Notes: generated from the sequence alone by a model not told the origin. Counted from the first letter of the stretch, positions 6,791-41,179 are shown. The stretch is 64,000 nucleotides of DNA from Candidatus Altiarchaeota archaeon (GCA_043800705.1 JAZDMS010000021.1:21527-85526); one strand, 5' to 3'. A program made the numbers and translations.

Positions 6791-7879
6791 TCAGGATTTG
6801 TCAAGCAGGTATTCCCATCTCCATTGCGTGTCCTTCAGCACCGCCTTGAGGTGGACCTTCAGCGTATCGCCCTTTTCGACGGCCGTCCTGCCGCCGCTTT
6901 GGAGGAACATGTGCTTCCAGTGCGTCAGGGGCTTCTTGGGGTCCGTCGACAGCGTGACGTTCTCGGAGAGCCTCGCCTCCCAGTACATGACGAAGCCGTG
7001 GAACTCCCCTTCCGATTCCATCACGAACTCGCCGGAATAATCTAGTTTCCGGTTCTCGGTTTCCGGTTCACGGTTTACGGTTTCCGGTTTGCGGTTTGCA
7101 GTTCTCTGTTCCCGGCCAAAACTGAAAACCGAAGACTGAGAACTGAGGACTGAATGCTGTATGCCATTTTCCAAGTCTATCGTAAAGACTTTGACCGGTT
7201 TCGCCAGGTATCTGCACCTGCCCATGTCGCAGTTCCTCACCTCCTTGGGGAACCTCCCGACAGACGAGTAGTCGATGCCGTGGATGCTGCCGAAGAATCC
7301 CAGCCCTACGTCCTTCGACTCGACAGGCACGAGATAGACGTCTATGCGCTCCGGCATTATCCTCCCGCCGGGCTTCAGGAGGCGCCTGGCGTTGGCCACC
7401 TTGTAGGTGAGGCCCTCGTCGGTGAGGCGCATGCCGATGAGTTCGCAGATGATGCAGTCGACGGGGGGCATCTTCAGGTCGCGTATGTCGGCCCTGACGA
7501 ATTCGACGTTGCTTAGGCCGTTATTTTTCGCGACGCTTCGCGCGACTTCGATGATTTCCGCGGGCTCGACACCTATGACCGAGCCTGCGCCAGCCTTTGC
7601 CGCGAGCATCGCCAGTATGCCGGTCCCTGTGCCCACATCCAGCACCCGGTCGCCTGGCTTCACGGACTCCCTGATAGCGGCCTCGAACGCCCGCATCCTT
7701 ACCTCGTCCTTGAGGAGGGTCTGGTGGACCTCGATCTTCGACCACGTGTACTGGTATGCGGTGTCGGTGAAGAAGTATGCGGCCATGAGCCCGTCGAGAG
7801 CCAGAGTGGCGTCCGACAGGCGCATTATAAGGTCCCGCCATAGGATGCGGGGGGATGCTGACAGTCGTGGCAGTTGCAT
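6791..7879 (-). CDS. Protein-arginine N-methyltransferase (PRMT)-like SAM-dependent methyltransferase
   Basis: HQTLLKDEVR, VLDVGTGTGIL, double-E loop CELIGMRLTDE, THW loop STDPKKPLTHWK. Confidence 0.85.
   Translation of the reverse strand: MQLPRLSASPRILWRDLIMRLSDATLALDGLMAAYFFTDTAYQYTWSKIEVHQTLLKDEVRMRAFEAAIRESVKPGDRVLDVGTGTGILAMLAAKAGAGSVIGVEPAEIIEVARSVAKNNGLSNVEFVRADIRDLKMPPVDCIICELIGMRLTDEGLTYKVANARRLLKPGGRIMPERIDVYLVPVESKDVGLGFFGSIHGIDYSSVGRFPKEVRNCDMGRCRYLAKPVKVFTIDLENGIQHSVLSSQSSVFSFGREQRTANRKPETVNREPETENRKLDYSGEFVMESEGEFHGFVMYWEARLSENVTLSTDPKKPLTHWKHMFLQSGGRTAVEKGDTLKVHLKAVLKDTQWRWEYLLDKS
7043..7159. repeat. Inverted array of degenerate heptamers, in-frame inside the PRMT-like gene
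   Basis: Ten CGGTTTC-like units, a 5-nt spacer and six AAAACTG-like units; 117 bp = 39 codons. Confidence 0.9.
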
Positions 7880-7881
7880 TT

Positions 7882-8397
7882 TTACCGGGTCATTATGTAG
7901 GCGCCGTCCTTTCCGCCGTCGATCTCCTTCAGCTTCACCCTGATCTCCTCGCTGACGGATGTAGGGATCTTCGCCCCGACAAAGTCGGCTGTTATGGGAA
8001 GCTCCCTGTGTCCGCGGTCTATCAGCACGGCGGTCTTGATGCTCCTTGGCCTGCCCTGGCCCATGACGGCATCCAATGCGGCCCGGATCGTCCTACCCGT
8101 GGACATTACGTCGTCTACGAGGATCACGTCCTTGTCGGTTATGCTGAAGGGTATGTCGGAACGGTCCTCGGTGCTTTCGGATTTCAGGTCGTCCCTGTGG
8201 GGGCGGGCGTCAAGGGAGCCTACCTTGACCCCCTTGCCGAGGTCCTTCGCGATCCTTCTGGCGAGGTTGTCCCCCCGTGTGATTATTCCAAGGACGACCA
8301 TGTTCTTCGTGTCGGGGTACTCTGCGAGTATGGCCTTCGCGATCTTCGCGAGATTCCAGCCGATCTCCCCGTCGTCCATCACCTGTTTGACGCTCAT
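7882..8397 (-). CDS. pyrR: PyrR (pyrimidine regulator / uracil phosphoribosyltransferase)
   Basis: GIITRG, HRDD, VILVDDVMSTGRTIRAALDA and DRGHRELPITADFVG. Confidence 0.9.
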   Translation of the reverse strand: MSVKQVMDDGEIGWNLAKIAKAILAEYPDTKNMVVLGIITRGDNLARRIAKDLGKGVKVGSLDARPHRDDLKSESTEDRSDIPFSITDKDVILVDDVMSTGRTIRAALDAVMGQGRPRSIKTAVLIDRGHRELPITADFVGAKIPTSVSEEIRVKLKEIDGGKDGAYIMTR

Positions 8398-9029
8398 ATT
8401 CTGGACCTCCTTATGAGGCTGCGGACGATCTCGATTGCCCCAAGCGAGTCCTTCTTGCTCACTATGAGAAAGGTGCTTTCGTAGCTTGATGACACTTCGA
8501 CGACGTTGATCGACGCGCCCCCCAGCGCCATCATCAGCTGCGCGATGACGCCGGGCGTCTGCACGATCTCCGCAGGGCTCGTTATTATTATCGCCGAAAG
8601 GTCGCTTATTGTCTTTAGTAGCTCCCCCTTTTTATAGTCCAACAGTTCGATCGATGCGTCGTCAACGAAGACCGTCGACGTGTCGATGCCCTGGACCTTG
8701 ACGTAGAAGGCCGGCTGCCTCGCCGGCTGCGTCATTATCTGCGGCTTGCCCCTCATGTAGAGGATTGTGATGTCATCCATCAGCTGCAGCCTGCTTCTCC
8801 CCAGGATGCTCGAATACCTGGCTTCCGTGTCGGCCTTCACCCTGAGCCCGATGCGCTGGAGGGTGACTGCTATGGTGGATATGCCCGCCTTCTGCCCTGC
8901 GGCCTTGGATACCTCGGGCTGTATCCGCTGAGCCAGGCGACGATTGTTAACGATCCCCATCCGCATGGCGTCGAGTATCCTCAGGTCGGAATGGATGACC
9001 TCATCGACCGCCTTGGATATCGGCTTCAT
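8394..9029 (-). CDS. Archaeal ACT-domain regulatory protein
   Basis: N-terminal helical domain (GIVNNRRLA); C-terminal ACT-like TPGVIAQLMMALGGASINVVEVSS. Confidence 0.75.
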   Translation of the reverse strand: MKPISKAVDEVIHSDLRILDAMRMGIVNNRRLAQRIQPEVSKAAGQKAGISTIAVTLQRIGLRVKADTEARYSSILGRSRLQLMDDITILYMRGKPQIMTQPARQPAFYVKVQGIDTSTVFVDDASIELLDYKKGELLKTISDLSAIIITSPAEIVQTPGVIAQLMMALGGASINVVEVSSSYESTFLIVSKKDSLGAIEIVRSLIRRSRI

Positions 9030-9077
9030 TGATACACCTTTGTAATGATTATAACAACCTGGTTATAAATGTATCAA
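9029..9077. promoter_or_regulatory. Divergent promoter region with nested inverted repeats
   Basis: TTATAAC-N6-GTTATAA (9049-9068) nested within TTGATACA...TGTATCAA. Confidence 0.45.
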
Positions 9078-9132
9078 ATACACGCAGGGGTTATATCCTT
9101 GTTACATCATATCATGTTACGGTGGTTTACCC

Positions 9133-10425
9133 ATGGACGACAAGAGCATCGACGTAAGGGACATAATAAAGAAGATTGACGCAACACCTAAGCCGAAGGT
9201 GAAGAGGGCATGCCTGGCTTACTCGGGCGGCCTGGACTCGACCCTTGGCGTAGAGTTCCTGAGGAAGGTCTACAAATGCGACGACATCGTCGCTGTCACG
9301 CTCGACGTGGGCCAGGGGGAGGACGAGATAAAGGACTCGGAGATGAAGGCGAAGAAGTGCGGAATCAAGCCGATAATGGTGGACGTGAAGGACGAGTTCA
9401 CCGAGGTATGGCTGAAGAATGCGATCCGCGCCAACTCCAGCTACAACGGATACCCGGTAGCCACGTCGATGACAAGGCAGCTTGTCGCCGAGAAGGTGGC
9501 TTTAGAGGCCGTCAGGAACGGCTGCGACGCCATATTGGAGGGATGCACGGGCAAGGGCAACGACCAGTACAGGATGCACAACGTCATCACATACTTCGCA
9601 CCCGGGATCGAGATCCTCCAGCCGGTGAGGGACTTCGACCTGACCCGCTACGAGGAGGAGGCATTGGTCAAGCTGTGGAACGTCCCGGTCAGCGAGGGGA
9701 TAACCGGAGGAGACGACAAGACCATGTGGTGCCGCTCCATAGCATCAGGCGCAGTCGACCTCAACCAGGAGCTCCCGGACGACATATGGATGTGGCTGGT
9801 GCCAGCAGAGAAGGCTCCGGACAAGGCGACGACCATAGAGATCGAATTCGAGGAAGGCGTCCCCGTCGCCATGAACGGCAGGAGGATGAAGCTCGGCGAA
9901 CTTGTCATGCAGCTGAACGTAGTCGCGGGCAGGAACGGCATAGGGAAGATCGACATGTTCGAGGACGGCATCATGAACATGAAGAGCAGGGAGATCTACG
10001 AGGCCCCCGCAGCCGCAGTCATCCTGAAGTTGCACAGCGACCTGGAGCAGTGGTGCCTGACCAAGGACGAGATACAGTTCAAGAAGACCGTCGATGCCAG
10101 GTGGGCATATATGGTCTACCACGGCGAATGGTATCACCCCCTCAAGGAGGACCTCGACGCGTTCATAGAGAAGAGCCAGGAGTTCTGCAGCGCCAAATAC
10201 AAGGTGACGCTCTACAAGGGCAACGTCGACATCGTCTCCAGGGAATCGGACACAGGCCTGTTCAACAGGGAGATGAGGTCGATCAAGACCCGCGGCTTCA
10301 ACCAGCAATGGGCGATCGGCTCCACGAAGGTCGCGTCCCTGCAATGGCTGATAATGGCAAAAGCAGGCCGCGCAAAGTCCAGGCAGAAGAAGCCGGCAGC
10401 GAAGCCGAAGCCGCAGGCGGCGTAG
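9133..10425 (+). CDS. Argininosuccinate-synthase-like protein (divergent paralogue)
   Basis: AYSGGLDS, GCTGKGNDQ and KSREIYEAP retained; the YSxDxN, SxE and ENR motifs are altered. Confidence 0.85.
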   Translation: MDDKSIDVRDIIKKIDATPKPKVKRACLAYSGGLDSTLGVEFLRKVYKCDDIVAVTLDVGQGEDEIKDSEMKAKKCGIKPIMVDVKDEFTEVWLKNAIRANSSYNGYPVATSMTRQLVAEKVALEAVRNGCDAILEGCTGKGNDQYRMHNVITYFAPGIEILQPVRDFDLTRYEEEALVKLWNVPVSEGITGGDDKTMWCRSIASGAVDLNQELPDDIWMWLVPAEKAPDKATTIEIEFEEGVPVAMNGRRMKLGELVMQLNVVAGRNGIGKIDMFEDGIMNMKSREIYEAPAAAVILKLHSDLEQWCLTKDEIQFKKTVDARWAYMVYHGEWYHPLKEDLDAFIEKSQEFCSAKYKVTLYKGNVDIVSRESDTGLFNREMRSIKTRGFNQQWAIGSTKVASLQWLIMAKAGRAKSRQKKPAAKPKPQAA

Positions 10426-10433
10426 ACGGGATA

Positions 10434-10583
10434 AAGTCTTCGGTCCCCGGTCTTCGGCCCGCAGTCTTGGCCGAAGACCCACTTTTATTCTTAAAAAAGG
10501 GTTCACATATATGGAAGTCCACGGTTTTCGGTCCTCGGTCTTGAAGACGGGGGACTGAGAACTGAAAACCGGAGACGGCAGAC
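10434..10583. repeat. Two intergenic clusters of degenerate heptamer repeats, partly inverted
   Basis: CGGTCTT-like units at 10434-10468 and 10515-10542; complementary AAGACGG/AGAACTG/AAAACCG units at 10544-10583. Confidence 0.85.
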
Positions 10584-10632
10584 ACCATCAATTCGGATAA
10601 AACAAAGGTAAAAAGGGAATAAGGTCAAGAAA

Positions 10633-12135
10633 ATGGCAAAACTGTGGGGAGGACGGTTCCAGAAGGAGTTCGCGAAGGGCGTCGAAGACTTCGTGCAGTC
10701 GGTCGAGGTCGACCGCGAGATGGTATCGGAGGACATCTGGGGAAGCGAAGCCCATGCGATAATGCTCGCCAAATGCGGCATCATATCCGGCCACGACCTG
10801 AAGAAGATCCTCCACTGGCTGGAGAAGGCGAGGCAGGACTTCGAATCCGGTAAGCTCACACTCGACAAGGCCGACGAGGACGTACACATGAACGTGGAGA
10901 AGTACGTCACAGGCGGCGCGGGCATTGAGTACGGCGGGAAGCTGCACACCGCCCGAAGCCGCAACGACCAGGTCCTCGTGGACGCGAAGCTCCACATCAG
11001 GTTCAAGATCATAGACGTGAAGCGCAGGATAATCGGTCTACAGAGGGTCTTTCTCAGGATTGCGGAGGAGAACATCGAGACGCCCGTGCCGGGATACACC
11101 CACACCCAGGACGCGCAACCGATCACGCTCGCCTACTGGGCGACGGCCTACGTGAGCATGCTCATGAGGGACCTGGAGAGGCTCGACCACGCCTACCTGT
11201 CCGTCGACACCAACCCCCTGGGCTCGTGCGCCCTCGCGGGGACGAGCTTCCCCATCGACAGGAGGATGACTACGAGGCTCCTTGGGTTCCGCGACGTCCA
11301 CAGGCACAGCCTCGACGCCATATCATCGAGGGACTTCATAGCGGAGACCATGTGCGCGCTCGCGATACTCATGAGCAACCTCAGCAAGCTCTCCGAGGAG
11401 ATGGTCTACTGGAGCACATACGAGTTCCACATACTCGAGCTGGACGACAGCTACACCGCAGGCTCGTCGATCATGCCGCAGAAGAAGAACCCATGCGTCG
11501 CTGAGCTCGTCCGCGGCAGGACAGGGCGCATATACGGCAGCCTAATGCAGCTTCTGACCATGATGAAGGGCATCCCGATGGGCTACAACAGGGACCTGCA
11601 GGAGGACAAGCCCCCCCTGTGGAACTCCCTCAAGGTCATGGAAGCCACCCTCGAAGTCGTCACCGGCATGGTTGACACGATGAAGATCAACAAGGAGCGC
11701 CTGGCGCACCTGTCCGGCGCTAACTTCACGACCGCAACGGAGCTGGCCAATCACCTCGTCCGCGAGCGCGGCCTGAGCTTCCGCGAATGCCACCACATAG
11801 TCGGCTCCCTGGTCGGCGAACTCAGCCGCAAGGGGAAGAACTTCATGGACTTCGACGAGGTGCACGCGATACTCAAGAAACAGGGCGTCGAAGTGGGCTT
11901 CGACGAGATGAGGCAGATCTTCGACCCGAGGAACAACATCAGGACCTATAAGAGCCTCGGCAGCACATCGCCGAAGGAGGTGTCCGCCATGATCGCAGAC
12001 TTCAAGAAGCAGACGGCAAAGAACGTGAAGATCGCGGACGCGCAAGAGGAGCGCATAGCCTCGGCCCGCAACCGCACGGTGAAGATCATAAAAGACGTCC
12101 TTTCCGGGAAGGACATAAAAGGCATAAAGGTTTAG
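10633..12135 (+). CDS. argH: Argininosuccinate lyase
   Basis: [25 protein letters not shown] and [11 protein letters not shown]. Confidence 0.97.
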
Positions 12136-12145
12136 GTCGGATAAA

Positions 12146-13360
12146 ATGGCAAAAAATATTGTTTTGGCTTATTCGGGAGGTTTGGACACGAGCGTGATAC
12201 TGAAGTGGCTCATCGACAAAGGATACGACGTCGTAGCATACGTCGCCGACGTCGGCCAAGGCGACGATTTCGAGAAGGTCAGGCAGAAGGCCCTCAAGGT
12301 CGGGGCGAAGAAGGTCTACGTCGAGGACATGAAGGAGGAGTTCGTGACCGGCTTCGTCTGGCGCGCGCTGAAATCCAACGCCATATACGAGGGCAAATAC
12401 CTCCTAGGGACGTCGATTGCGAGGCCTATCATCGCGAAGAGGCAGATCGAGATTGCGAGGAGGGAGAAGATTTCCGCGGTATCGCACGGTGCGACCGGCA
12501 AGGGCAACGACCAGGTCCGCTTCGAGGTGACGTACATGACCCTGATGCCCGAATGCGAGATAATCGCCCCCTGGAAGGACGAGGAGTTCCTTACGCAGTT
12601 CCAGGGCAGGGAGGACATGCTCGATTACGCGGCGAAGAACGGGATACAGGTGGATGCGACGAAGAAGAAGCCGTACTCCAGCGACGAGAACATCATGCAC
12701 AAGAGCTTCGAGGCCGGAGTCCTCGAGGACCCGGGCGCGGCGCCGCCTCCTGACATGTTCACGAAGACGGTGTCGCCGAAGGCTGCGCCGGACAGGGAGA
12801 CGAAGGTGTCGGTCACGTTCGAGAAGGGCGTCCCTGTCAGGGTCGAATCAGGCGGGACCGTGAAGACGAAGCCGGTTGAGATCCTCACCTTCCTGAACAA
12901 ATTGGGCGGCGAGAACGGCATCGGCCGCATAGACCTCGTCGAGAACCGCTATGTGGGGATGAAGAGCCGCGGAGTCTACGAGACGCCGGGTTACACGATT
13001 CTGCGGGTGGCGCACCTTGACATTGAGGGCCTTACGATGGACAGGGAGGTGCAGCACCTGAGGGACATGCTGTCTCCGAAGATCGCAGAACTCATGTATA
13101 ACGGCTTCTGGTACGCGCCTGAGATGGAGTTTTTGATGGCCGCGGTCGACGAGAGCCAGAAATACGTCTCCGGCACGGTGAACCTGACCCTCTATAAGGG
13201 CAACGTGACCGTGAACGGGAGGACGTCAGAGAACAGCCTCTACGACGCGAACATAGCCAGCATGGATGTCCATGGAAAATACAATCAAATGGACAGCGTA
13301 GGGTTCATAAAATTGAACGCGCTGCGTCTGAGGTTGTGGGCCAGCAAACACGGGAAGTAG
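12146..13360 (+). CDS. argG: Argininosuccinate synthase (canonical)
   Basis: [40 protein letters not shown] and [17 protein letters not shown]. Confidence 0.97.
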
Positions 13361-13585
13361 ATTTCGTCAGTGCTGCCGAAAGTTAGCACATGTTTCTTTC
13401 TTTTTCGCCAGCGTTTTTCTTTCTTTGGCAAAGAAAGAAAAAGGCTGCAGATACATCCAGATGGACTCGGTAGGGTTTATCAAGTTGAACGCGCTGCGTC
13501 TGAGGTTGTGGGCCAGCAAACACGGGAAGTAGATTTCGTCAGTGCTGCCGAAGGTGGCACACTTTTTCTTTCTTTTTTCGTCAAC
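13277..13585 (+). repeat. Tandem duplication of the argG 3' end and its downstream flank
   Basis: 68-bp exact repeat at 13313-13380 and 13485-13552 (offset 172), with degenerate extensions on both sides. Confidence 0.95.
13409..13447. repeat. REP-like palindrome between the duplicated copies
   Basis: CAGC-g-TTTTTCTTTCTTT-ggc-AAAGAAAGAAAAA-g-GCTG. Confidence 0.75.
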
Positions 13586-13586
13586 A

Positions 13587-13663
13587 TTAGACAGAGGACC
13601 GAATACTGTAGACCGCAGACAGAAGACAGAGGACCGAAGACTGTAGACCGCAGACAGGGGATC
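13587..13663. repeat. Direct array of ~11 degenerate heptamers
   Basis: gaggacc gaatact gtagacc gcagaca gaagaca gaggacc gaagact gtagacc gcagaca, with a 35-bp higher-order period. Confidence 0.9.
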
Positions 13664-13665
13664 GT

Positions 13666-14280
13666 TTAGTCGTCGGGTGCCTGTTCGTTGAGTACGCATC
13701 CCTGGCCTTTGACGCATCTCATGTTGTTCTGGCAGGTTTCGAGCTTCGTGTATACGGCCTCGTACTGGCAGCATTTCTCCCCTGTCTTCTTGTCCTGCTC
13801 GCAGAGGGGGTTCAGGAGGTCCTTGTATACCTCGTCGTTCTTGCATTTGAAGTCGCTGTAGCTGGAGACCCCGCAGTCGCTGTTTGCTGTGCATGCTTTG
13901 CAGACCGGCGGCGGAGTCATCGTGGTCGTCGTGGGTATTATCATGATGCCTGCGCAGTTCTGGGCGCACTGCCAGCATTCGGTGTATTTAGAGGGAGTTG
14001 GCATAGTCGAGCCGGTAGTCGAGTCGCTTTGGCATACGGGGCAGGTCTGGCACTTCGGGCATTCGACGACTTTGCCGTCTGTCGATGTTGATATCGCAGG
14101 GCACTGGTTTTGGGCGTCTTTGACGCTTCCGTCGGAGCAGACGTATTTTGTGACCGTGTTCGTCTGTGTTCCGCCTTCGGCCGGCTTCAGGAACCATATG
14201 CTCGATCCGCCGAACAGTATCCCCAGGAGGAGGGCTATCGCCATTAGGACGGCGGTTAACACGATCTCTATTCTCTCCAT
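13666..14280 (-). CDS. Membrane-anchored Cys-rich hypothetical protein
   Basis: N-terminal TM, YVCSDG motif, Thr/Pro linkers and many Cys residues. Confidence 0.75.
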   Translation of the reverse strand: MERIEIVLTAVLMAIALLLGILFGGSSIWFLKPAEGGTQTNTVTKYVCSDGSVKDAQNQCPAISTSTDGKVVECPKCQTCPVCQSDSTTGSTMPTPSKYTECWQCAQNCAGIMIIPTTTTMTPPPVCKACTANSDCGVSSYSDFKCKNDEVYKDLLNPLCEQDKKTGEKCCQYEAVYTKLETCQNNMRCVKGQGCVLNEQAPDD

Positions 14281-14327
14281 TGACCTACTTATGGTGATTA
14301 AGCCTTAAAAATGTTGCATCGGCGCCC

Positions 14328-14897
14328 TTAGGACCGCCCGTATTTCCCGATAAGCTGCGTTTTGGCCAATATCCGGCCTTCCATGGCCTTCAGGAGTTCT
14401 GCTTTTCCAGCCGTCTTCGGCAGGCCCAGTTTTCGGTCGAGCGCATATGCCTTGAATACGTACCTGTGCACGCCGCTTGGCGGGCACGGTCCGCCGTATC
14501 CGGTGGTTCCGAAGCTGGTCCTCCCTTCCGTGCCCCACATTGGCGAACCCTCCCCGATGGAGGGATTGCGGGGGTCTATGTCCCAGAGCACCCAGTGGAC
14601 CCAGTCTCCGGCCGGGGCGTCGGGGTCGTCTACGATCAACGCGACCGAGGCTGTTCCCGGCGGCTGGCCTTCCAGTCGCAGGGGCGGATTCACGTCTGCT
14701 CCGTCGCAGGTGTATTTTTTCGGTATCGTCCCGCCGTCTTCGAATGCCGCGCTTGTCAGCTTCATAGCCTCCACCTCCTTTGGATTATCCTGCCCGGCTG
14801 CCACTGCCTCATCGGTCGGCCCGGGCCCGTCATCGCCTTGTCCTCCGATGCAGCCTGCCAGGAGCAACGCCCCCAATAGGGGGACCATCCGCTTCAC
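14328..14897 (-). CDS. YbhB/YbcL (PEBP/RKIP) family lipoprotein
   Basis: LLAGC lipobox, DDPDAP, WVHW and YGGPCPPSGVHRY. Confidence 0.93.
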   Translation of the reverse strand: MKRMVPLLGALLLAGCIGGQGDDGPGPTDEAVAAGQDNPKEVEAMKLTSAAFEDGGTIPKKYTCDGADVNPPLRLEGQPPGTASVALIVDDPDAPAGDWVHWVLWDIDPRNPSIGEGSPMWGTEGRTSFGTTGYGGPCPPSGVHRYVFKAYALDRKLGLPKTAGKAELLKAMEGRILAKTQLIGKYGRS

Positions 14898-14994
14898 GAA
14901 TGATTATTCGTCAGCGTGTAAAAAAGCGGTTGGTTCGGTCCCGGCCGAAGAAAAACGTGTGTTTTTATCTGGGTCTGCGGCGGATTATCCTAAC

Positions 14995-16893
14995 GTGAAA
15001 GCATACGTCCAGATTGGGATCCTCACGTGCCTCCTCTTTTTTTCCTTTGCGGCGGGGGCCTATGTCCTGAAATCCGATGATGTAGTCGCATCAGGCATCG
15101 AAAATGTCACATGGGCCGGCCTGAGGGGTATAACGAACCATAGCTTCGTGACGCCGACCACTATAGCGGCCCGTTCGGGGAACGGGAAGGCCGACGACTG
15201 GGCGTATGATCCCGGATCGGTTTCAGCGGACGGGATAATGGCGGCTTCCGCATCGGGGGGCATCCTGAACGGGCTAAGCCAGGGTTTGTTGATGAAATCC
15301 GCCCCACGGATGATGGCGGAGTCTGCGGCCTCTGATACCATCGGCTTCTCTGCCGGCGGGGCCAAGGACGTCAACAGCTTCAGGGAAAACATCAGAAACG
15401 GTTTCCTCCCGTTGGAATCCGACATAACCTATGAAGGCCTGTTCTACGATTACTCGTTCGACACCGGGCGGCAGAAGGCGTGTTCGAAGCTCTTTTGTCC
15501 GTCGTACTCTTACGCGGTCTCCAAGGATCCGCTCTCCGGGAGGGATGACGTCTATCTTTCCGTGGGCCTCGATTCCGGGATGAGGCAGGAGGACTTCGAG
15601 AGGAAGAGGCTCAATCTCGTGATCGTGCTGGACGTTTCGGGTTCTATGGGCTCGCAGTTTGACAGGTACTACTATGACAGGGCCGGTGGGAGGGCATCCT
15701 CCGAGCCGGACGCCGATGCCGGAAGGTCGAAGATGGAGGTGGCGACGAAGTCCGTCAACGCCCTCCTGGACCGGCTTGACGAAGGAGACCGTGTGGGAAT
15801 CGTCCTCTTCGACCAGTCTTCGTATCTGGCCAAGCCGATGAACAGGGTCGGAGACACGGACATGGATGCGATAAAGGCCCACGTCCTGTCCATCCGCCCG
15901 AGGGGTTCGACGAACATGGAGGCCGGGATGCGAATGGGGACCGAGTTGTTCGGAGAATACCTGGAAGCGGACCCGTCAGAGTACGAGAACAGGGTCATCT
16001 TCCTCACGGACGCGATGCCCAACACGGGCCAGACAGGCGAGGAAAGCCTGCTTGGCCAGCTTCGGAGGAATGCCGACAAGGGCATATACGCCACATTCAT
16101 CGGCATCGGCGTCGACTTCAACACGGAACTTGCCGGGGGGATAACGAAGGTGCGGGGCGCCAACTACTACAGCGTCCATTCCCCGAAGGAGTTCGAGGAG
16201 AGGATGGCTGACGGATTCGACTACATGGTGAGCCCGCTCGTATTCGACCTCAGGCTATCGCTCGACTCCCCCGGATATGAGATATTGAAAGTCTACGGTT
16301 CGCCGGAGGCCGACGAGGCAACGGGAGACATAATGAGGATAAACACGCTCTTCCCGTCAAAAAACGATGCCGGAGAAGTCAAGGGCGGGATCGTCCTACT
16401 GAAGCTCAGGAAAACCTCCGATGACGGCACCTTGCGCCTTAAGGTCTCCTACGAGGACAGAAACGGCAGAAGGGAATACGTGAAGGAGGATGTCGAGGTC
16501 GAAGATGTTCGACCGGACGATTACCCAAACAGCGGCATACGCAAGGGCATACTCCTGGCAAGGTACGCAGACCTCATGAAGAGCTGGATAATCGACGAAC
16601 GGGAGGGGGCTGCGATCCAGGCCCCGGTCAGCCCATATGTGAACGAGGATGTCGGCATAAGGTGTCCGCGCCCCATCCCGCCAAGGCTCGGCCGGTGGGA
16701 GAGGCAGTCTATGCCCCTGATTGTGAGCGGGGGATATCCGCGGACGTTCGGAAGGTTCGAAACATATTTCCGTTACGAGATGGCGGAGATAGGCGACGAT
16801 TCCCTCGGCAGGGAGGTCGAAGTCCTCGGCATGCTCGGCCCGAGTGCCCGGAAATACGGGGGGAAGGTTGACGACTGGGCAGGTACCGGTTAG
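14995..16893 (+). CDS. Exported von Willebrand factor type A domain protein
   Basis: A probable GTG start gives an N-terminal TM; MIDAS DVSGS, GSTNM and FLTDAMPN. The longer tracked ORF overlaps the opposite-strand gene. Confidence 0.85.
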   Translation: MKAYVQIGILTCLLFFSFAAGAYVLKSDDVVASGIENVTWAGLRGITNHSFVTPTTIAARSGNGKADDWAYDPGSVSADGIMAASASGGILNGLSQGLLMKSAPRMMAESAASDTIGFSAGGAKDVNSFRENIRNGFLPLESDITYEGLFYDYSFDTGRQKACSKLFCPSYSYAVSKDPLSGRDDVYLSVGLDSGMRQEDFERKRLNLVIVLDVSGSMGSQFDRYYYDRAGGRASSEPDADAGRSKMEVATKSVNALLDRLDEGDRVGIVLFDQSSYLAKPMNRVGDTDMDAIKAHVLSIRPRGSTNMEAGMRMGTELFGEYLEADPSEYENRVIFLTDAMPNTGQTGEESLLGQLRRNADKGIYATFIGIGVDFNTELAGGITKVRGANYYSVHSPKEFEERMADGFDYMVSPLVFDLRLSLDSPGYEILKVYGSPEADEATGDIMRINTLFPSKNDAGEVKGGIVLLKLRKTSDDGTLRLKVSYEDRNGRREYVKEDVEVEDVRPDDYPNSGIRKGILLARYADLMKSWIIDEREGAAIQAPVSPYVNEDVGIRCPRPIPPRLGRWERQSMPLIVSGGYPRTFGRFETYFRYEMAEIGDDSLGREVEVLGMLGPSARKYGGKVDDWAGTG

Positions 16894-20087: not shown

Positions 20088-22274
20088 ATGTTTGTGTACA
20101 GGTTCACTGTGAGGGGCGTTGTCCAGGGCGTCGGCTTCAGGCCGTACATCTACCGGAAGGCCAGGGAACGGGGCCTGGTCGGATACGTGAAGAACGCCGG
20201 GGGCTGTGTCGAGATCGTCGTCGACGACAGAGACTTCATCGGGAGGTTGACGGACCTGCCGCCTCTGGCCAGGATCACGGAACACTCGGTCGGATCATAC
20301 GGCGGGGGGGAGACGTTCAGGGGATTCACGATACGCGGGAGCTCCCCCTCCGAGGGGCAGACGCAGATGCCCCCCGACATCTTCATGTGCGGCGACTGCC
20401 TCAGGGAGCTGAGGGACCCCGGTGATCGCCGCCACGGCTACTACTTCATAACATGCACGAACTGCGGCCCCAGGTTCTCCATGACATATGACAGCCCATA
20501 CGACCGGCCGAACACCGCCATGGGGGAGTTCAGGATGTGCCAGTCATGCAGGAGGGAATACGAAGACCCGGCGGACCGAAGATACCACGCACAGACGATA
20601 GCATGCGGGGACTGCGGCCCCAGGCTTCTTCTGAAAAAGGGCAGGAGGGACATTAGCTGCGGGACGGACAGGGAGACAATACGCAAAGCCGTGGATGTGA
20701 TCCGTTCAGGGCAGCCTGTCGCCATCAAAGGCGTCGGCGGGTTCCACATGTGCTCGCTCACGGACGATAAAAACGTGAAAATGGTAAGGAAGGCCCTCGG
20801 AAGGCCGAATAAGCCGTTCGCCATCATGGTGCGGGACTTGGACATGCTTAAGGAGACGGCAAGGTTCTCCCCATACGAGGCTGAGCTGATCGCAGGCCCT
20901 CAAAGGCCGATCCTCGTATTGGCGAAGAAAAATCAGTCCGACTTCGGCCTCGTATCCGAACTTGACACGATAGGGGTGATGCTGCCGTATACGGCGCTTC
21001 ATTATCTCCTCTTTGACTGCCTGGATGAGCCTCTCCTGATGACCTCCTGCAACATCCCGGGGGAGCCGGTCGCCGTCTCCGAGAGGCTGGCGGAGTATTA
21101 CCTCACCCACGAGAGGAGGATCGTCAACAGGTGCGACGATTCAGTCCTTAAGTCCGTCGGCGGAAGCGCTCTATATCTGAGGAGGTCGAGAGGGTATGCC
21201 CCCTTGTCGGTCCCGCTCCCCATCGTGGTGGAGGACACCATCGCATTGGGGGCCGAATCGAACAACGCCGTCTTGGCCGCCAAGGGGAGGGAGTGTAGTC
21301 TTTCCCAGCACATAGGCGAGTGCTCGAAGCTTGAGACTTTCGAGTTCATGAAGGAGGCGGTCCGGAACCTCGTCAGGCTCGGCGGCCTGAAGCCCGGGAT
21401 CGTGGCCTGCGACATGCATCCGGGATACAATTCCACGGCATATGCCCTGGAGCTGGCGGATGAATTCGATGCGAGGCTCGTCAGGGTCCAGCATCATAAG
21501 GCCCATGTGGCCTCCGTCGCGGCGGAGCACGGGTTCACCGGCTACGTCGGGATAGCGATGGACGGGATGGGCTACGGGGAGGACGGGACGGTCTGGGGAG
21601 GGGAGGTGTTCGACGTCGAGGGAGGGGGCGACTTCACACGGATCGGGAGCCTGCAGGAGCAGCCCCAGCTTGGAGGCGACTTTGCAGTCCTTCATCCGAG
21701 GAGGATGCTCTTCGGGATATTGGCTGGAATCCTTGACGAGCGGGAGCTGGCGATGCTGAAGCTCTTCAACGGGAAGGACAGCAGGCTCTACCGCAATCTA
21801 CTTGACAGCCGCTTCAACACGCCCATGACCTCGAGCGCGGGACGCATCCTCGACGCAGTCGCCGCCCTCCTTCGCGTCTGCGACGACAGGACATACGACG
21901 GCAGGCCTGCGATGATGCTGGAGGGCGTCGCGAGTAAGCCGCTGAGGCTCGAGCCCGTCGTCGAGCGCCTAGACGGCAGGGAGGTCCTGTCCACTGACGC
22001 CTTGTTCAGGTTCCTCCTTGAAAACAGAGGACTGAAGACAGGGAACCTCGCGGCCACGGCCCAGATGTACCTTGCCCAGGGACTCTATAGTATAGCCTCG
22101 GAGGCCGCAGAACGCGGCTGCAAACCCATTGTGCTGTCCGGGGGGGTGGCGTATAACCGGATGATAACCGGGTACATGCTCGGTAGGGGGGTTTCCATCA
22201 ACAGGGACATACCCTGCGGAGACGGGGGGATATGCTACGGCCAGGCGTACCTTGCGAACGTCAGGGGTCAGTGA
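20088..22274 (+). CDS. hypF: Carbamoyltransferase HypF
   Basis: GVVQGVGFRP, Zn fingers, KGVGGFH, QHHKAH and DGGICYGQ. Confidence 0.97.
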   Translation: MFVYRFTVRGVVQGVGFRPYIYRKARERGLVGYVKNAGGCVEIVVDDRDFIGRLTDLPPLARITEHSVGSYGGGETFRGFTIRGSSPSEGQTQMPPDIFMCGDCLRELRDPGDRRHGYYFITCTNCGPRFSMTYDSPYDRPNTAMGEFRMCQSCRREYEDPADRRYHAQTIACGDCGPRLLLKKGRRDISCGTDRETIRKAVDVIRSGQPVAIKGVGGFHMCSLTDDKNVKMVRKALGRPNKPFAIMVRDLDMLKETARFSPYEAELIAGPQRPILVLAKKNQSDFGLVSELDTIGVMLPYTALHYLLFDCLDEPLLMTSCNIPGEPVAVSERLAEYYLTHERRIVNRCDDSVLKSVGGSALYLRRSRGYAPLSVPLPIVVEDTIALGAESNNAVLAAKGRECSLSQHIGECSKLETFEFMKEAVRNLVRLGGLKPGIVACDMHPGYNSTAYALELADEFDARLVRVQHHKAHVASVAAEHGFTGYVGIAMDGMGYGEDGTVWGGEVFDVEGGGDFTRIGSLQEQPQLGGDFAVLHPRRMLFGILAGILDERELAMLKLFNGKDSRLYRNLLDSRFNTPMTSSAGRILDAVAALLRVCDDRTYDGRPAMMLEGVASKPLRLEPVVERLDGREVLSTDALFRFLLENRGLKTGNLAATAQMYLAQGLYSIASEAAERGCKPIVLSGGVAYNRMITGYMLGRGVSINRDIPCGDGGICYGQAYLANVRGQ

Positions 22275-31232: not shown

Positions 31233-31246
31233 CCATTTTGTAGTGC

Positions 31247-33907: not shown

Positions 33908-33920
33908 TTACATCACCTAC

Positions 33921-34205: not shown

Positions 34206-34281
34206 ATATTTTTCTATCGCTCTCTTTGTACACCTATTTAAGCTAAGCTAGTTTAGATAGTAATTGCATGATGAAGTAGAT

Positions 34282-34872: not shown

Positions 34873-34875
34873 CTT

Positions 34876-35442: not shown

Positions 35443-35443
35443 A

Positions 35444-35827
35444 ATGGACTCCGATTATGTGGAGGAATTTTATCCCCCCTTCAATAGTCATTTTAAAGCG
35501 TGCTTAAAAAACTTTAGACATACGTTTGAGGAAGATTTTGGGCGGCTTAGAAAAGTTGTTTTAATTGAAAGGGAATCTGCAAGCTGCACTGATAAAATCG
35601 CTAATCTAGGTAGTGAGGTATCGTTACCAGTATATAAAATCCATATGCACGTTAAACAAGCAAGTGGAAAAATTGGCCGTGTTATATTCATACTAGACAA
35701 ACCACAAAAAAGGATAGTGTACGTTGATATTTACACAAAAAACAAACAATCAAACCACGATTCTAAGTGGATAAGAGAAGCATATACGTGGTATGTGGAA
35801 TATATTAGTAAAGTACCTCCTTATTAA
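35444..35827 (+). CDS. RelE/HigB-like toxin
   Basis: VYKI...GKIGRVIF...IVYVDIYTK; starts 1 nt after the antitoxin stop. Confidence 0.6.
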   Translation: MDSDYVEEFYPPFNSHFKACLKNFRHTFEEDFGRLRKVVLIERESASCTDKIANLGSEVSLPVYKIHMHVKQASGKIGRVIFILDKPQKRIVYVDIYTKNKQSNHDSKWIREAYTWYVEYISKVPPY

Positions 35828-35860
35828 CAATACATCAGGACCAGGACCATGAGCTACATT

Positions 35861-35938
35861 TGCTCCTTTTTACCCCCGGCTGCTCCTAAATGGTTTTAGA
35901 TGCTCCTTTATGCTGCTCCTATTTGAAGTTAAGGAGCA
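35861..35938 (+). repeat. Right-end TGCTCCT box array
   Basis: Direct boxes at 35861, 35881, 35901 and 35914; one inverted AGGAGCA at 35932. Confidence 0.93.
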
Positions 35939-36001
35939 AAGCCGGTATTCCGCCGGTTGCCGTGGTTCTCCCTTTTTTATCGGGCAATCCAAGTATATTT
36001 G

Positions 36002-37084: not shown

Positions 37085-38031
37085 AGGGGATTCTGAAAAG
37101 CAGGGGCGCATTTGCGGGGGCCGCGTACGCGGCCGTCTCTTACGCCGTGATCGCGGCCCTCAGCTACGGGAGTCCTTTTGTCATTTCCGGCTCTTGGGCC
37201 TTTCTGTTCGTCGCCCCCATCTACCTGACACATGCCATCCTGATATTCGTCGTCTGACTCCCTTTCGCACTCCTTGGAATGCGCTTTTATGACCTTGGAA
37301 TGCGCTTTGATGACCTGGCTATGCCGGTCCTGACTCTCGCCAATATTATCCTGTGGGCTTTCCTTGGCGCATACATCCAGCATTTGAAACTGTTGTCTTT
37401 GAAAAAACGAAATATTCCATTCTACTTTTCAGTTGCGGTCATCCTGTACAACCTGCTCACAGTCGGCTGTATCGGCTGCAATTACGGCACCGTCCTATTG
37501 TCGCTCGTCCTTGTTTTTGCGGCATGGATTATCTGGGCTGACCTTACGATGCCGGTCTTAATAGCCCATCTCCTGGTGTTTTTCATGATCTCCCAGCTCG
37601 GAGGCTTCTGCCCCTGCGGCCCGATGGGGCCGACGGCGACGGGCTTCGCGAAGCTGAAGCCGCAGCTTGCGGGCACATACGTCACAGGCCATTTAGGCAC
37701 TACGAATTTCATCTTCACCAACGGGGCTGCCGGGACGATACGGGTGCAGAGCGTCGCGGTAGAGGACCTGGTCTCGCCGGTCGCATCGCCTTGCGCCGGC
37801 GCCAATGCGCTTCAGTCGAATTCGGCGGACCTGGTCGGCGAGAATGCAGACTCGAGGACTGTCGTGGTCCCATACGGCGAGAACCTCAGGATCTCCAACC
37901 AGGGCTGCCTCTCGGCCATGGAGACGGGGGAGGTCTACAACGCGAGGGTCCGGATCACATACGCGATAGACGTGAACGGAAAAAGAACCCTCGCGACGGA
38001 AACGGGGACGATAAGGGGGCCGGCGGAATGA
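37081..38031 (+). pseudogene. Multi-TM protein with a pilin-like C-terminal domain, interrupted by an in-frame TGA at 37255-37257
   Basis: The two tracked ORFs are in one frame and together align with the downstream paralogue. Confidence 0.7.
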
Positions 38032-38927
38032 TGTTGGACCTTCTGAGACGCAGGGGCGCTTTCGCTGGGGCGGCTTATGCGGTCTTCGGGGTTCTGGCTC
38101 AGGCTGCCCTAGCCTACGGCCATCCCCCGGGGCTGGACATCTCGTCTGCTTTCATTCTCATCTTTGCGCCGCTAAACCTTACGATGGCCGTCTTAATGTT
38201 CGCGTTGACTTTGCCGTTCCGATTTGTTGGATTAGACAGAGTTGCGGAAATGCTGTTTCCCGCCGTTTACCCTGCGAACTTCATCTTATGGGCGGTTATC
38301 GGGGACTTCTTTGAACGCAAGACATCTCTGAAAATATCCCGACGTATCATACCATTCATCGTCTCGGCTTTGGCCATATCCTACAATGTCGGGTCAGGCT
38401 GCGTTTCATGCCATTATAACGTCTTTCTTGGGTCGTTTTTCGTGGCGCTGGCGGCATGGGTCATCTGGTCCGAATTGACGGTGCCGGTGGTGTTCTTCCA
38501 TCTGATGATTTTCCTGGTCATATCCCAGCTTGGGATATTCGGCTGCTCTTGCGGACCTATGATAGCAAATTCTTATGGGTTTGTTAAAATCAAGCCTGTA
38601 TTGCCGGCGACTGGTATGAACAGTGGAGGGAACATCTCTGTGATCATGACAAACGGTGTCGGGGGGAATGTCTCGATCGATGCTGAGGGGATAGTATTGG
38701 CTGATCTTGTCAGCGGCGGAAACTGCTCCGGGGTCCGGTTGACTGTGTCTGAAGGACGGGAGGATGCTATACCGCCGGGCACCAACGTTGGGATAGATGC
38801 AAAATGCCCGCCATTGCCGGCAGGTGACATCTACAAAATTAGATTTACAATCCCATACGAGGCCGCAATCAACGGGAAGACGGAGAAAAGAACGGAATCC
38901 GGGACTATAAGTGGGCCGGTGGAGTGA
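38028..38927 (+). CDS. Multi-TM protein with a pilin-like C-terminal domain (intact paralogue)
   Basis: RGAFAGAAY, ISQLGIF, GFVKIKP, TNGVG and ESGTISGPVE. Confidence 0.8.
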   Translation: MMLDLLRRRGAFAGAAYAVFGVLAQAALAYGHPPGLDISSAFILIFAPLNLTMAVLMFALTLPFRFVGLDRVAEMLFPAVYPANFILWAVIGDFFERKTSLKISRRIIPFIVSALAISYNVGSGCVSCHYNVFLGSFFVALAAWVIWSELTVPVVFFHLMIFLVISQLGIFGCSCGPMIANSYGFVKIKPVLPATGMNSGGNISVIMTNGVGGNVSIDAEGIVLADLVSGGNCSGVRLTVSEGREDAIPPGTNVGIDAKCPPLPAGDIYKIRFTIPYEAAINGKTEKRTESGTISGPVE

Positions 38928-38928
38928 G

Positions 38929-39999
38929 CTATTTTTTCCCCTTCCTCTGCGTTTTCAGATCGTCGTAGAGTTCCTTTCCCTTGTCTGCGGAAAGGGGTAT
39001 CAGCTCGTCCATGCCGAGTGTTAGTTTGTGTTTCGATCCCTGCTTCGCCCCCCTTGCCGTCAGGGTCTTCTCCACCATGGGGGTGACGATGTTCCTGTAG
39101 GTGTTCCATTCGGGGGCGAACTTCATCTCGAGGCCGCAGTCCTTAGAGAGCCTTTGTATGAGGACGTATGGGCTGAGGTGTTCTAGGAAGTCCGAGACCA
39201 GGTTCACGTATTCGTCGAATCCGAGGCTCTTGTAGGCGCCGGTCTGCCACATGTTGGCGAGGCGGGTGTCCTTCATGACGACGAGGGGGTAGAGCTTTAT
39301 CGCGTCTACTCCGATCGCGGATATTATCCTCGCGGTCTCCATCATCTCGTCTTGGGATTCCCCCGGCATGCCGAGTATTATGAAGGCGAGCAGGGGGATG
39401 TCCCTTGCGTGGCATTCGTCGGTTGCCCTTATGAGCTCGGCGAGGCCGTGCTGCCTGTTGGTCTCCCTGAGGGTGTGCTGGTGGACGGTCTGCTGGCCTG
39501 CCTCGACCCAGACCTCGTACCCTGATTTTTTGTATTCGGCGAGCAGGTCCAGGACTTCGTCGGGGAGGCAGTCCGGCCTGGTGCCCACAGTGAATCCGAG
39601 AATGTCCTTGTTTGCCTTGACGGTCTCGTCGAATATCCTCCTTAGCTTGTCCAACGGGGCGTATGTGTTCGTCCCGAACGCTATGTATACGAGGCCTTTC
39701 TCCCCTGCGCCCATCTCCTGATAGTGGGCTACCATCGCGTTAATCTGTTCGGTGAATCCCTTGTCTATGACCTCCCTGAAGGCCGGATACGTGAACTGTT
39801 TAGCCTGGCTGGGGCAGAATATGCACCCGTTCTCTGAGAGGCGGCCGTCCCAGTTGGGGCAGACGAAGGCCGCATTCAGCGGAACCTTGAATATCCTGTA
39901 ACCGTGAATCTTACGCTCATACTGGCCGTATGCGCTGTACAGTAGGCCCTCACGATAGAGGCCGTCGACGACGGATTTGTCGATTATCTGCTTGATCAT
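38929..39999 (-). CDS. TIGR01212 (YhcC-like) radical SAM protein
   Basis: CPNWDG...GCIFC, TNTYA, GTRPDCL and ILGMPGE. Confidence 0.9.
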   Translation of the reverse strand: MIKQIIDKSVVDGLYREGLLYSAYGQYERKIHGYRIFKVPLNAAFVCPNWDGRLSENGCIFCPSQAKQFTYPAFREVIDKGFTEQINAMVAHYQEMGAGEKGLVYIAFGTNTYAPLDKLRRIFDETVKANKDILGFTVGTRPDCLPDEVLDLLAEYKKSGYEVWVEAGQQTVHQHTLRETNRQHGLAELIRATDECHARDIPLLAFIILGMPGESQDEMMETARIISAIGVDAIKLYPLVVMKDTRLANMWQTGAYKSLGFDEYVNLVSDFLEHLSPYVLIQRLSKDCGLEMKFAPEWNTYRNIVTPMVEKTLTARGAKQGSKHKLTLGMDELIPLSADKGKELYDDLKTQRKGKK

Positions 40000-40103
40000 C
40001 GGATTAGGTACTAGCTCTTTGTCGTTTATATTCCCCACCAACCAGATAATACCCGATATTGAGTAGAACATCATTTTTAAGTAGTAAGTCTTATAGTTGT
40101 CTG

Positions 40104-40724
40104 ATGTTGGACGCGGCCTTGGAGGAACTCAGGAAAGGCAGGATGATTTTACTGCACGATTCCAGCGACAGGGAGAACGAGGTGGATATAGTCATCAACG
40201 GCCCGTTTACGACCCCTGAGACCATCCGGACGATGAGGAAGGACGCCGGCGGCCTCATATGCCTGGCAATCAGCAGGGAGAACGCATCCAGGCTCTCCCT
40301 CCCATACATGACGGACCTGATGTCGGCGTCCAACGATACAGTCCGAAGGCTCATCCCGGAGCGCACGGCCTACGGCGACAAGCCCGCGTTCTCGCTGTCC
40401 ATCAACCATAGAAAGACATACACGGGCATCACCGACAACGACAGGGCCCTGACAATCACGGAGTTCGCGAAGACCGAAAACCGAAAACTGCTGACTGAAA
40501 ACTTTTATGCGCCGGGCCACGTCCACCTGCTCATCGCAAAGACGCTGAAGGAGCGCAAGGGCCACACTGAACTGTCCATCGAGCTGGCGAAGAGGGGGGG
40601 ACTCAACGAGACGATGGTGCTCTGCGAGATGATGGCCGACGACCACAATGCGCTCTCGTTCGATGGGGCAAAGGCGTACGCGAAAAAGCACGGCCTGCTC
40701 ATGGTCGACGGAGGGGAGCTGTGA
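40104..40724 (+). CDS. ribB: 3,4-dihydroxy-2-butanone-4-phosphate synthase
   Basis: DRENEVD, GGLIC, TGITDNDR, PGHV, GHTE and CEMM. Confidence 0.95.
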   Translation: MLDAALEELRKGRMILLHDSSDRENEVDIVINGPFTTPETIRTMRKDAGGLICLAISRENASRLSLPYMTDLMSASNDTVRRLIPERTAYGDKPAFSLSINHRKTYTGITDNDRALTITEFAKTENRKLLTENFYAPGHVHLLIAKTLKERKGHTELSIELAKRGGLNETMVLCEMMADDHNALSFDGAKAYAKKHGLLMVDGGEL

Positions 40725-41179
40725 GGATCGGCGTCGTCGACACGACGTTCGCGAGGGCGGACATGGGGAAAATAGTCGTCAACGAGATACGGGACAGCTT
40801 CGGCGACATCGTCGTCGTGAGGAGGACAGTGCCGGGAGTAAAGGACCTGCCCGTCGAATGCCTGAACCTCCTATCGGAATGCGACATAGTCGTCGCATGC
40901 GGGATGCCCGGCGCTCAGGAGATGGACAAGGTCTGCGCCCACGAGGCCTCGACCGGCCTCATACAGGCGCAGCTGATGACAGGCAAGCACATCATAGAGG
41001 CCTTCGTCCATGAGGATGAGGAGACCGAAGACAGAGGACTGAAGACCTTGGTTGAGGACAGGTGCCGAAAGCACGCCAGGAACGCGGTGATGCTCCTCAA
41101 GGATCCGGCCTGGTTCACGAGGAACGCGGGCAGGGGGATGAGGCAGGGAAGGGACGACGCAGGATCATTATATCTTTGA
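40721..41179 (+). CDS. ribC: Archaeal-type riboflavin synthase
   Basis: IGVVDTTFAR, TVPGVKDLP, HEAS, FVHEDE and RQG. Confidence 0.95.
   Translation: MRIGVVDTTFARADMGKIVVNEIRDSFGDIVVVRRTVPGVKDLPVECLNLLSECDIVVACGMPGAQEMDKVCAHEASTGLIQAQLMTGKHIIEAFVHEDEETEDRGLKTLVEDRCRKHARNAVMLLKDPAWFTRNAGRGMRQGRDDAGSLYL

Follow-up and report, generated by a model that had tools for sequence, protein, structure and literature searches.

How does one degenerate seven-nucleotide word come to be repeated in tandem both between genes and inside them, where it is translated and the reading frame survives? The question is raised by a 64,000-nucleotide stretch of DNA from a Candidatus Altiarchaeota archaeon, referred to here as the window (contig C18:21527-85526 of the source genome, labelled G000, a 2.0-Mb assembly in 43 contigs that is 87.55% complete). 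An independent scan of the window at a threshold of at least three units found six arrays in total (Table 1), the same six that an earlier note on this DNA had listed as sharing one unit, and they do belong to a single dispersed family, both intergenic and translated within genes. Units read in register give the consensus GNRRACN, with invariant G1, A5 and C6 and a purine always at positions 3 and 4. Tandem Repeats Finder reported a period of 7 or its multiples at 7045-7154, 10435-10472, 13589-13661 and 40468-40488, and the same periods at all long loci. Translation likewise upheld the claim that the four host genes in the window keep their frame, all four open reading frames (ORFs) being open. 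Our favoured answer, which we consider probable but far from secure, is that this is a lineage-specific family going with one gene for a four-helix-bundle (4HB) protein of an archaeal subfamily; the arrays that lack the gene would derive from the cassette that carries it, having been seeded and then grown by slippage, with the short ones produced by conversion.

Genome-wide, there are 115 runs of at least three perfect in-register units in G000, all to the GNRRACN consensus. Clustered within 200 bp, they form 56 loci that cover about 4,976 bases after extension. Markov-5 simulations that keep hexamer content produced three runs over five simulations, or 0.6 per genome. Within genes, whose positions come from our own crude ORF caller (1810 ORFs, 84% coding), 26 sense and 9 antisense runs were observed, whereas replicates with shuffled codon order had 0-2 and 0, respectively. 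A synonymous-codon shuffle that keeps the proteins still left 6-13 sense runs; it is a poor null for the long arrays because these encode periodic peptides from few codons, and it was replaced by a per-peptide test in which the peptide is fixed and codons are drawn from genome usage. Each of the 11 short in-gene peptides then had a chance of 0.05-0.16 of reaching three or more units, and the short-array signal therefore lies in the DNA and not in the peptide. The shuffled controls that the earlier note had called for thus leave the in-gene arrays above chance, by codon-order shuffle and by per-peptide codon draw. Several contigs begin or end in or beside arrays (C33:4-178, C1:255-484, C30:497-524 and C24:1955-2459), and as arrays break the assembly at contig ends, 56 loci is a lower bound. 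These loci, about 5 kb in all, are one lineage-specific, recently expanded family.

The restriction to a lineage is sharp. Related genomes of the order bear the name 'Candidatus Altiarchaeales'. A three-unit pattern matched 343 times in G000 and 295 times in G017, a genome of the same family and a different genus, whereas the other 29 relatives had 0-3 matches each (13 in total, mean 0.45) and same-genus genomes had at most one. With a four-unit pattern, the 49 genomes of the order gave 228 matches in G000, 193 in G017, 2 in G038 and none in the remaining 46, which include all four of G000's own genus and the other member of G017's genus. In the phylum at large, four-unit matches were present in 9 of 61 genomes, and those beyond the order fell in six of the eight genomes of one other family (36, 21, 14, 11, 8 and 2 matches). 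The reversed pattern, used as a control, had 0 matches in every genome scanned. Because close relatives lack the family, its gains can be polarised, which makes it a natural experiment in an archaeon.

A candidate partner gene lies outside the window. G000 has exactly one PF05635 gene, at C1:22662-23024, an intact ORF of 120 aa that scores 63.9 bits against PF05635 (cut-off 33.8) and 64 against TIGR02436, 'four helix bundle protein' (cut-off 24); PF05635 was found in 5 of the 49 genomes of the order. The gene sits inside the largest block of arrays in the genome, with about 400 bp upstream and about 80 bp downstream; the upstream part begins where a tyrosyl-tRNA-synthetase-like ORF (named by eye) has its stop codon. 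Its upstream arm is of the pyrimidine type and its downstream arm of the purine type. The whole locus (C1:22183-23123) comprises the gene and about 480 bp of arrays between the synthetase-like ORF and a convergent cysteine-rich ORF, and several small hairpins are nested upstream of the gene. A homologue with 59% identity in G017 has the same array flanks, and one with 53-54% identity in G024 has the upstream arm only, of 3.9 units.

A more divergent 4HB gene, in G019, is flanked by another heptamer, GGGATTA and its complement. This word has seven matches in that genome, five of them at the 4HB locus, with one further locus; the reversed GGGATTA control is a cyclic permutation of the repeat and so uninformative. 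At the 4HB locus the GGGATTA-type arrays on both sides are each followed by CTAACNA-type arrays, and the word resembles the published GGGAATC repeat of Xanthomonas. We also built a subfamily profile from the three close homologues (G000, G017 and G024; matches at E ≤5e-54), which found the subfamily in 6 of 61 phylum genomes: G000, G017, G024, G057, G059 and G060. Arrays occur in 5 of these 6 and in 4 of the 55 without the subfamily (Fisher p = 1.2e-4, with related genomes not independent), and the four most array-rich genomes of the phylum all carry the gene. Outside the phylum the subfamily was found in archaea only, at 20 loci, mostly of Micrarchaeota with Woesearchaeota and others, and heptamers with an xRAAACY core lie near 11 of the 20. 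The six Altiarchaeota loci have no neighbouring gene in common, and the 4HB gene therefore stands in a different context each time. A link to 4HB genes of the 23S-intervening-sequence or Avd-like kind, suggested from the window sequence, is thus borne out by the single G000 gene inside the largest arrays and by a subfamily that tracks the array-bearing genomes of the phylum. None of the six arrays of the window belongs to the 4HB cassette; they are copies that lack the gene yet keep the cassette's word and arm order.

The earlier note had also advised looking for a linked reverse transcriptase or HUH gene, and neither was found: G000, at its stated completeness, has no match to PF00078 (reverse transcriptase), for which control genomes were matched, and none to PF01797 (HUH Y1 transposase), for which controls were matched in 6 of 14 genomes. 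These results bear on the idea that a classical enzyme spreads the repeats, either by reverse-transcriptase copying of the kind seen in diversity-generating retroelements (DGRs), with an Avd-like 4HB protein, or by an HUH transposase that moves hairpins like those of repetitive extragenic palindromic (REP) elements. DGR homing yields length-neutral replacement, REP hairpins are moved by REP-associated tyrosine transposases (RAYTs), and the 4HB family includes the Avd of DGRs; the G019 protein scores 39.8 bits against NF033474, under that model's cut-off of 80. Given that neither enzyme was found in a genome of that completeness, and targets that for a DGR would have to be many unrelated genes, we hold this explanation to be very improbable.

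Arm order is what ties the gene-less arrays to the cassette. Where two arms adjoin (gap ≤60 nucleotides, nt), the + strand runs from pyrimidine to purine at 27 junctions and the other way at 3. Pyrimidine-then-purine order reads identically on either strand, and it is the order found around the 4HB gene in G000 and G017. Of 19 close pairs, 14 leave 2-3 nt between the arms. Because they share this order with the cassette, the gene-less hairpins look like cassettes that are empty. We infer that they may descend from the 4HB cassette as non-autonomous elements, which some cassette-dependent process would have seeded at new sites, and that seeded arrays would then lengthen and shorten by slipped-strand replication. 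Block duplications inside arrays, with periods of 14-56 nt and 95-100% identity, are very recent and local; in the array after the second argG, for example, a 35-nt block (13589-13657) is duplicated at 97% identity. Arm lengths within a pair often differ several-fold, and 30 of the 56 loci have a single orientation only. In our reading the arms began from a common seed design and each then grew locally on its own. Array ends are often AGT...ACT (by eye), close to the make-up of units within arrays, and no terminal inverted repeats of unique sequence were seen at the arrays.

The inverted arms also invite a regulatory explanation, in which inverted arrays are selected elements acting as bidirectional terminators or RNA-stability hairpins at gene ends. 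Of the 36 loci not wholly within an ORF, about 20 (counted by eye) lie against a stop codon or overlap one, by 0-12 nt. They include the array 9 nt from the first argG and the one after the second argG, which is about 2 nt from the stop of a - strand ORF at 13666-14280, or 9 nt by the narrower bounds of its perfect runs. The arm order means that a T-rich arm is met first on either strand, and the Xanthomonas repeats likewise cluster within 50 bp of stops (PMC4692102). Yet 20 of the 56 loci lie inside ORFs, and the same gene ends exist in same-genus genomes without the family. Single-arm arrays beside 3' ends show no consistent orientation (about 4-5 against 4), and an Rfam search of 6000-15000 in the window gave no match at E up to 0.1. 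DNA-fold z-scores were -1.6 for 7040-7156, -4.3 for 10432-10482, -2.5 for 10512-10586 and +0.6 for the single-arm array at 13578-13666. The hairpin potential proposed for some arrays is therefore real, with z down to -4.3, but modest, and the arms of a pair show no compensatory pairing. We consider selection for regulation an improbable source of the family. As for the intergenic arrays, a candidate reading in which they split one gene was rejected: among six proteins at four loci (both flanks at two of them) no pair resembled halves, five having complete Pfam architectures (KARI, CysRS, hexapeptide transferase, SRAP and Nop) and one having no family.

By ORF position, the loci divide into 20 within ORFs, 8 across ORF ends and 28 between genes. 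The translated peptides are stereotyped, being KTENRKL- or PKTEDRR-like from the purine strand and SSQSSVFS-like from the pyrimidine strand. Nine of the in-gene loci are long inverted arrays, and all four that were compared with orthologues are in-frame insertions. In the PRMT-like protein of the window, where the pyrimidine arm is translated on the - strand as ...NRKPETVNREPETENRKL and the purine arm as SVLSSQSSVFSF, a 35-residue block is missing from 8 of 8 orthologues, four of them from the same genus; these align to residues 3-237 and 275-360 with a 2-aa gap between. An AlphaFold2 model from a 9-sequence alignment (mean predicted local distance difference test score, pLDDT, 71) renders residues 242-276 as coil (pLDDT below 50) that links strands 239-241 and 280-286, with confident flanks, so that the insertion is modelled as a disordered loop. 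The methionyl-tRNA synthetase (MetRS) has about 27-38 additional residues in the linker before its C-terminal domain, an insertion that the MetRS of G017 lacks. A TP_methylase, the diphthine-synthase-like protein, has about 37-40 additional residues, and an Asn_synthase-like protein about 65. Other long in-gene arrays are at C12:26041-28428, C12:49341-50204, C25:68681-70180 and C9:55261-55896, in hosts that by eye are a large helicase-nuclease-like protein, an NAD_binding_1 oxidoreductase, whose domain the array splits in two, an HD-domain protein and an acetyltransferase-like ORF.

Insertions of this kind in a metagenome bin might be assembly artefacts, with repeats mis-joined into genes, and the contigs noted above that start or end in arrays show the assembly breaking at them. 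On either side of the in-gene arrays, however, the sequence is orthologous and collinear, and frame is kept in all 10 in-gene-array genes compared with orthologues. Contigs from an independent public DNA run (word share 0.07) belong to a relative about 85-90% alike to the source genome, and one that is about 89% alike also enters the array from the PRMT-like gene, at 7043-7089. We find mis-assembly hardly credible. The same run, the only public one found and with none of RNA beside it, bears on the proposal that the process is active, which was not borne out: this single run represents a relative, and no contig of it spans the whole PRMT-like array.

Short single-arm arrays behave differently from the long ones. 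Of 11 such loci in genes, six were compared with orthologues, and none showed a change in length (hypF, ribB, ribC, rpe, MiaB-like and AIR-synthase-like, the last two named by eye); a short array in a DUF371 protein likewise showed none when measured against the Pfam profile. The ribC array is of unchanged length against five orthologues. At ribB the length is unchanged against the four closer orthologues, whereas a fifth, more distant one has 3 extra residues in the loop, and KTEN is already present at the site in one same-genus relative. Aligning orthologues, as the earlier note had recommended, therefore separated the in-gene arrays of the window into one insertion (PRMT-like) and three replacements. 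Its idea of new peptide loops stands for the PRMT-like block, absent from every orthologue and modelled as low-confidence coil; in hypF, ribB and ribC existing sequence is replaced at the same length. In all 11 short arrays the purine strand is the sense strand (binomial p = 0.001). The replaced segments are variable, charged loops in which residues are partly retained while codons shift to the repeat consensus; the MiaB-like protein has RKLETENRK where a same-genus relative has RKLEAEGRR, along with synonymous changes.

The sites themselves may have been receptive. We scored heptamer likeness as the share of fixed positions met, in register with the G000 array. For hypF, rpe, MiaB-like and AIR-synthase-like, scores at the orthologous sites of repeat-free relatives are 0.65-0.73, the background being about 0.40, which places them within the top 0.2-1.5% of windows of those genes; the hypF site in a same-genus relative, at 0.70, is in the top 0.5%. 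The ribC sites score only 0.55-0.60 (top 5-13% of windows), and for ribB the score cannot be relied on, since a gap in the alignment upsets the register and even G000 scores only 0.60. A gene-conversion-like process, as first proposed, is the simplest reading of the three short arrays in the window, given their unchanged length, but of the three only hypF has a heptamer-like site in a relative; heptamer-like orthologous sites also occur at three further sites outside the window. In such a process, array-derived DNA would convert partly similar purine-rich codons over a short patch with length kept, giving the short in-gene arrays, and selection would retain arrays that are in frame, stop-free and in loops or linkers.

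Several observations weigh against a cassette origin with later conversion. Arm complementarity within a pair averages 0.69, against 0.70 between loci, which means that the pairs were not copied recently from a master palindrome. G057, G059 and G060, of another family, carry the cognate 4HB gene without flanking arrays, and G024 has the gene yet only 3 three-unit matches genome-wide. Conversely, arrays occur with no 4HB gene detected in G053 (11 matches), G055 (14), G056 (2) and G038 (2), genomes that are 80-87% complete. By eye, array flanks show no target-site duplication or conserved target motif. For the 6 of 11 short arrays compared, the patch distance is 0.41-0.70 between relatives and 0.42-0.63 between G000 and relatives; these loops evolve fast in every lineage, which makes one-step conversion indistinguishable from gradual change.

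Some of these points would sit well with the main rival, ordinary simple-sequence-repeat dynamics, in which a slippage-prone 7-nt word arose and nucleates on similar purine-rich sequence while the 4HB gene is a passenger. Slippage alone would account for the block duplications at high identity, for short arrays at sites that were already heptamer-like, for arms that do not co-vary, and for 4HB genes without flanking arrays alongside array-bearing genomes with no detected 4HB gene; heptamers, moreover, were over-represented among bacterial repeats in a 2007 study cited in the main text of PMC4692102. But slippage lengthens arrays, and the six short in-gene arrays compared are all unchanged in length. 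Same-genus genomes share the purine-rich loops and nevertheless have no four-unit run and at most one three-unit match. In their arm order (27 to 3) and their fixed junction of 2-3 nt the arrays repeat the layout of the cassette, and the word varies with the 4HB subfamily, being GGGATTA in G019 and xRAAACY in the archaeal subfamily. On this balance we regard slippage alone as possible but doubtful, and retain the derivation of gene-less arrays from the 4HB cassette.

A bolder version of the 4HB connection would make the archaeal PF05635 protein the sequence-specific factor of a self-propagating repeat system, one that recognises its own heptamer and promotes the conversion to it, over short patches and with length kept, of any DNA that partly resembles it, after which the patches would grow by slippage into hairpin arrays. 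We offer this only tentatively and think it unlikely.

Within the window, host genes were identified by Pfam search of ORFs, and the coordinates of arrays and genes are collected in Table 1.

Table 1. Heptamer arrays of the window with their host and adjoining genes (positions counted from the first letter of the window)
Feature	Position	Strand	Remarks
PRMT-like methyltransferase ORF	6791..7879	-	362 aa; Pfam Methyltransf_31/25, PRMT_C; host of inverted array
Pyrimidine arm in PRMT-like ORF	7044..7113	+	10 units, NGTYYNC type on + strand
Purine arm in PRMT-like ORF	7117..7151	+	5 GNRRACN units; 3 nt from pyrimidine arm
argG-argH-argG block	9133..13360	+	Pfam; arrays occupy first spacer and come after block end
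argG (first)	9133-10425	+	Pfam
Pyrimidine-type array	10435..10469	+	9 nt past first argG stop; 11-bp perfect stem with 10469-10479
Inverted pair	10516..10584	+	Pyrimidine arm 10516-10543, purine arm 10543-10584; 48 nt upstream of argH
argH	10633-12135	+	Pfam
argG (second)	12146-13360	+	Pfam
Single purine-type array	13580..13663	+	Located after second argG
hypF	20088-22274		Pfam; host of array 22020-22047
hypF array	22020..22047	+	4 perfect units; purine strand is sense; encodes ENRGLKTGN
ribB	40059-40724		Pfam; host of array 40469-40503
ribB array	40469..40503	+	5 units (one imperfect); encodes KTENRKLLTEN
ribC-like gene, DMRL_synthase family	40721-41179		Pfam; host of array 41020-41047
ribC-like array	41020..41047	+	4 perfect units; encodes ETEDRGLKT

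The two argG paralogues that stand either side of argH in one block encode 430 and 404 aa, and the first has a lysine/alanine-rich C-terminal tail immediately before its array. About 200 nt past the stop of the second argG, a long T-rich tract (13560-13582) immediately precedes the single-arm array and could be the real terminator of the block. At the far end of the window, on the - strand of 59722-64000, a 1119-aa protein has a sequence suggestive of a repeat-rich secreted protein; the ORF adjoining it has Thr/Pro-rich repeats encoded by 24- and 42-nt tandem repeats (63407-63525) that are unrelated to the heptamer family.

Several known systems share parts of this picture. A dispersed heptamer repeat family is already known in the short tandemly repeated repetitive (STRR) heptamers. 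REP elements and bacterial interspersed mosaic elements (BIMEs) with their RAYT transposases, like miniature transposable elements with inverted repeats (MITEs), are short gene-less palindromes in many copies that plausibly stem from one gene-bearing element. Here there is no HUH Y1 match, no unique terminal inverted repeats or target-site duplications were seen, and the stems are degenerate tandem heptamers whose arms do not co-vary. Rickettsia palindromic elements, which are of unique sequence and about 100-150 bp long, stand in frame in essential genes and are translated there into added surface segments. The present family resembles them in that palindromic repeats persist as translated extra segments within essential genes, and differs in consisting of heptamer arrays; we know of no same-length overwriting described for the Rickettsia elements. 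With DGRs that have Avd it shares an Avd-like 4HB protein and the length-neutral replacement of a coding patch, but it has no reverse transcriptase match and no template/variable repeat pair, and its targets are many unrelated housekeeping genes.

The closest published counterparts are bacterial. The (GGGAATC)n repeats of Xanthomonas and GGGGA(C/T)T repeats of Nostoc (Rehm et al. 2015, PMC4692102) form about 180 dispersed arrays per genome, with 70-75 convergent pairs able to form stem-loops; the Xanthomonas repeats cluster within 50 bp of stops, which they sometimes overlap, and are depleted from coding sequence. The archaeal family shares with them the degenerate 7-nt units, dispersed arrays, convergent pairs and clustering at stop codons. 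The repeats of the bacterial genera are G-rich and quadruplex-forming and prefer four units, whereas the family here has the word GNRRACN, and in contrast to the Xanthomonas repeats, depleted as they are from such sequence, it has over a third of its loci inside ORFs and a further 8 over ORF ends. The main text of PMC4692102 describes no linked gene and makes no mention of 'S23', whereas a 4HB gene is linked here; it calls the mechanism of heptamer spread unknown. TAACTGA repeats in Beggiatoaceae, Cyanobacteria and Bacteroidetes are patchily distributed, in a way suggestive of horizontal spread, 'but no mechanism is evident' (MacGregor 2015, PMC4679880), and archaea are not mentioned in the main text of that paper. 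There too heptamer arrays are patchy across lineages with some copies in ORFs, a few in the case of TAACTGA. That word, however, carries stops in all three forward frames and occurs in ORFs only at protein ends, whereas GNRRACN is readable and lies in internal loops.

The nearest approach to the 4HB association is in Coxiella burnetii (PMC4990558), where the intervening sequence (IVS) of 23S rRNA has an S23p (PF05635) ORF with tandem GACAGAT immediately upstream of its start codon, in numbers that vary between strains. Both cases thus join tandem heptamers to a small 4HB ORF that belongs to one Pfam family. The Coxiella IVS lies within helix 45 of 23S rRNA and RNase III excises it, whereas the archaeal 4HB gene lies between protein-coding genes and its heptamers recur at 55 other loci, coding sequence included. 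Re-registered as GATGACA, the Coxiella word meets 4 of the 5 fixed positions of GNRRACN, which may be coincidence. In the main texts of the literature searched, supplements excepted, we found no paper linking PF05635/S23p proteins to dispersed heptamers, the Coxiella IVS paper alone coming near, and none describing a dispersed heptamer family in archaea. The family is an archaeal member of the bacterial dispersed-heptamer phenomenon with three unusual traits: its tie to a 4HB gene, the third of its loci that are coding, and its two modes of occupying genes.

Heptamer repeats have been described in bacteria for decades without a mechanism, as the main texts of PMC4692102 and PMC4679880 themselves say. 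This archaeal family supplies a single candidate partner gene, of a subfamily that tracks the repeat across the phylum and with flanks that share their arm order with the gene-less copies. It also shows two outcomes within genes, insertions that add 27-65 residues to proteins such as MetRS and the diphthine-synthase-like and PRMT-like proteins, and short, length-neutral overwriting of loops. The 4HB protein and its heptamer are directly testable for binding and for array seeding. If the 4HB link is causal, it would explain both the spread of the repeat and the creation of new protein segments. Were the 4HB protein indeed a heptamer-specific factor, the system would amount to a means by which essential proteins have their surface loops rewritten and extended, and a very large protein family whose role is unknown would gain a function.

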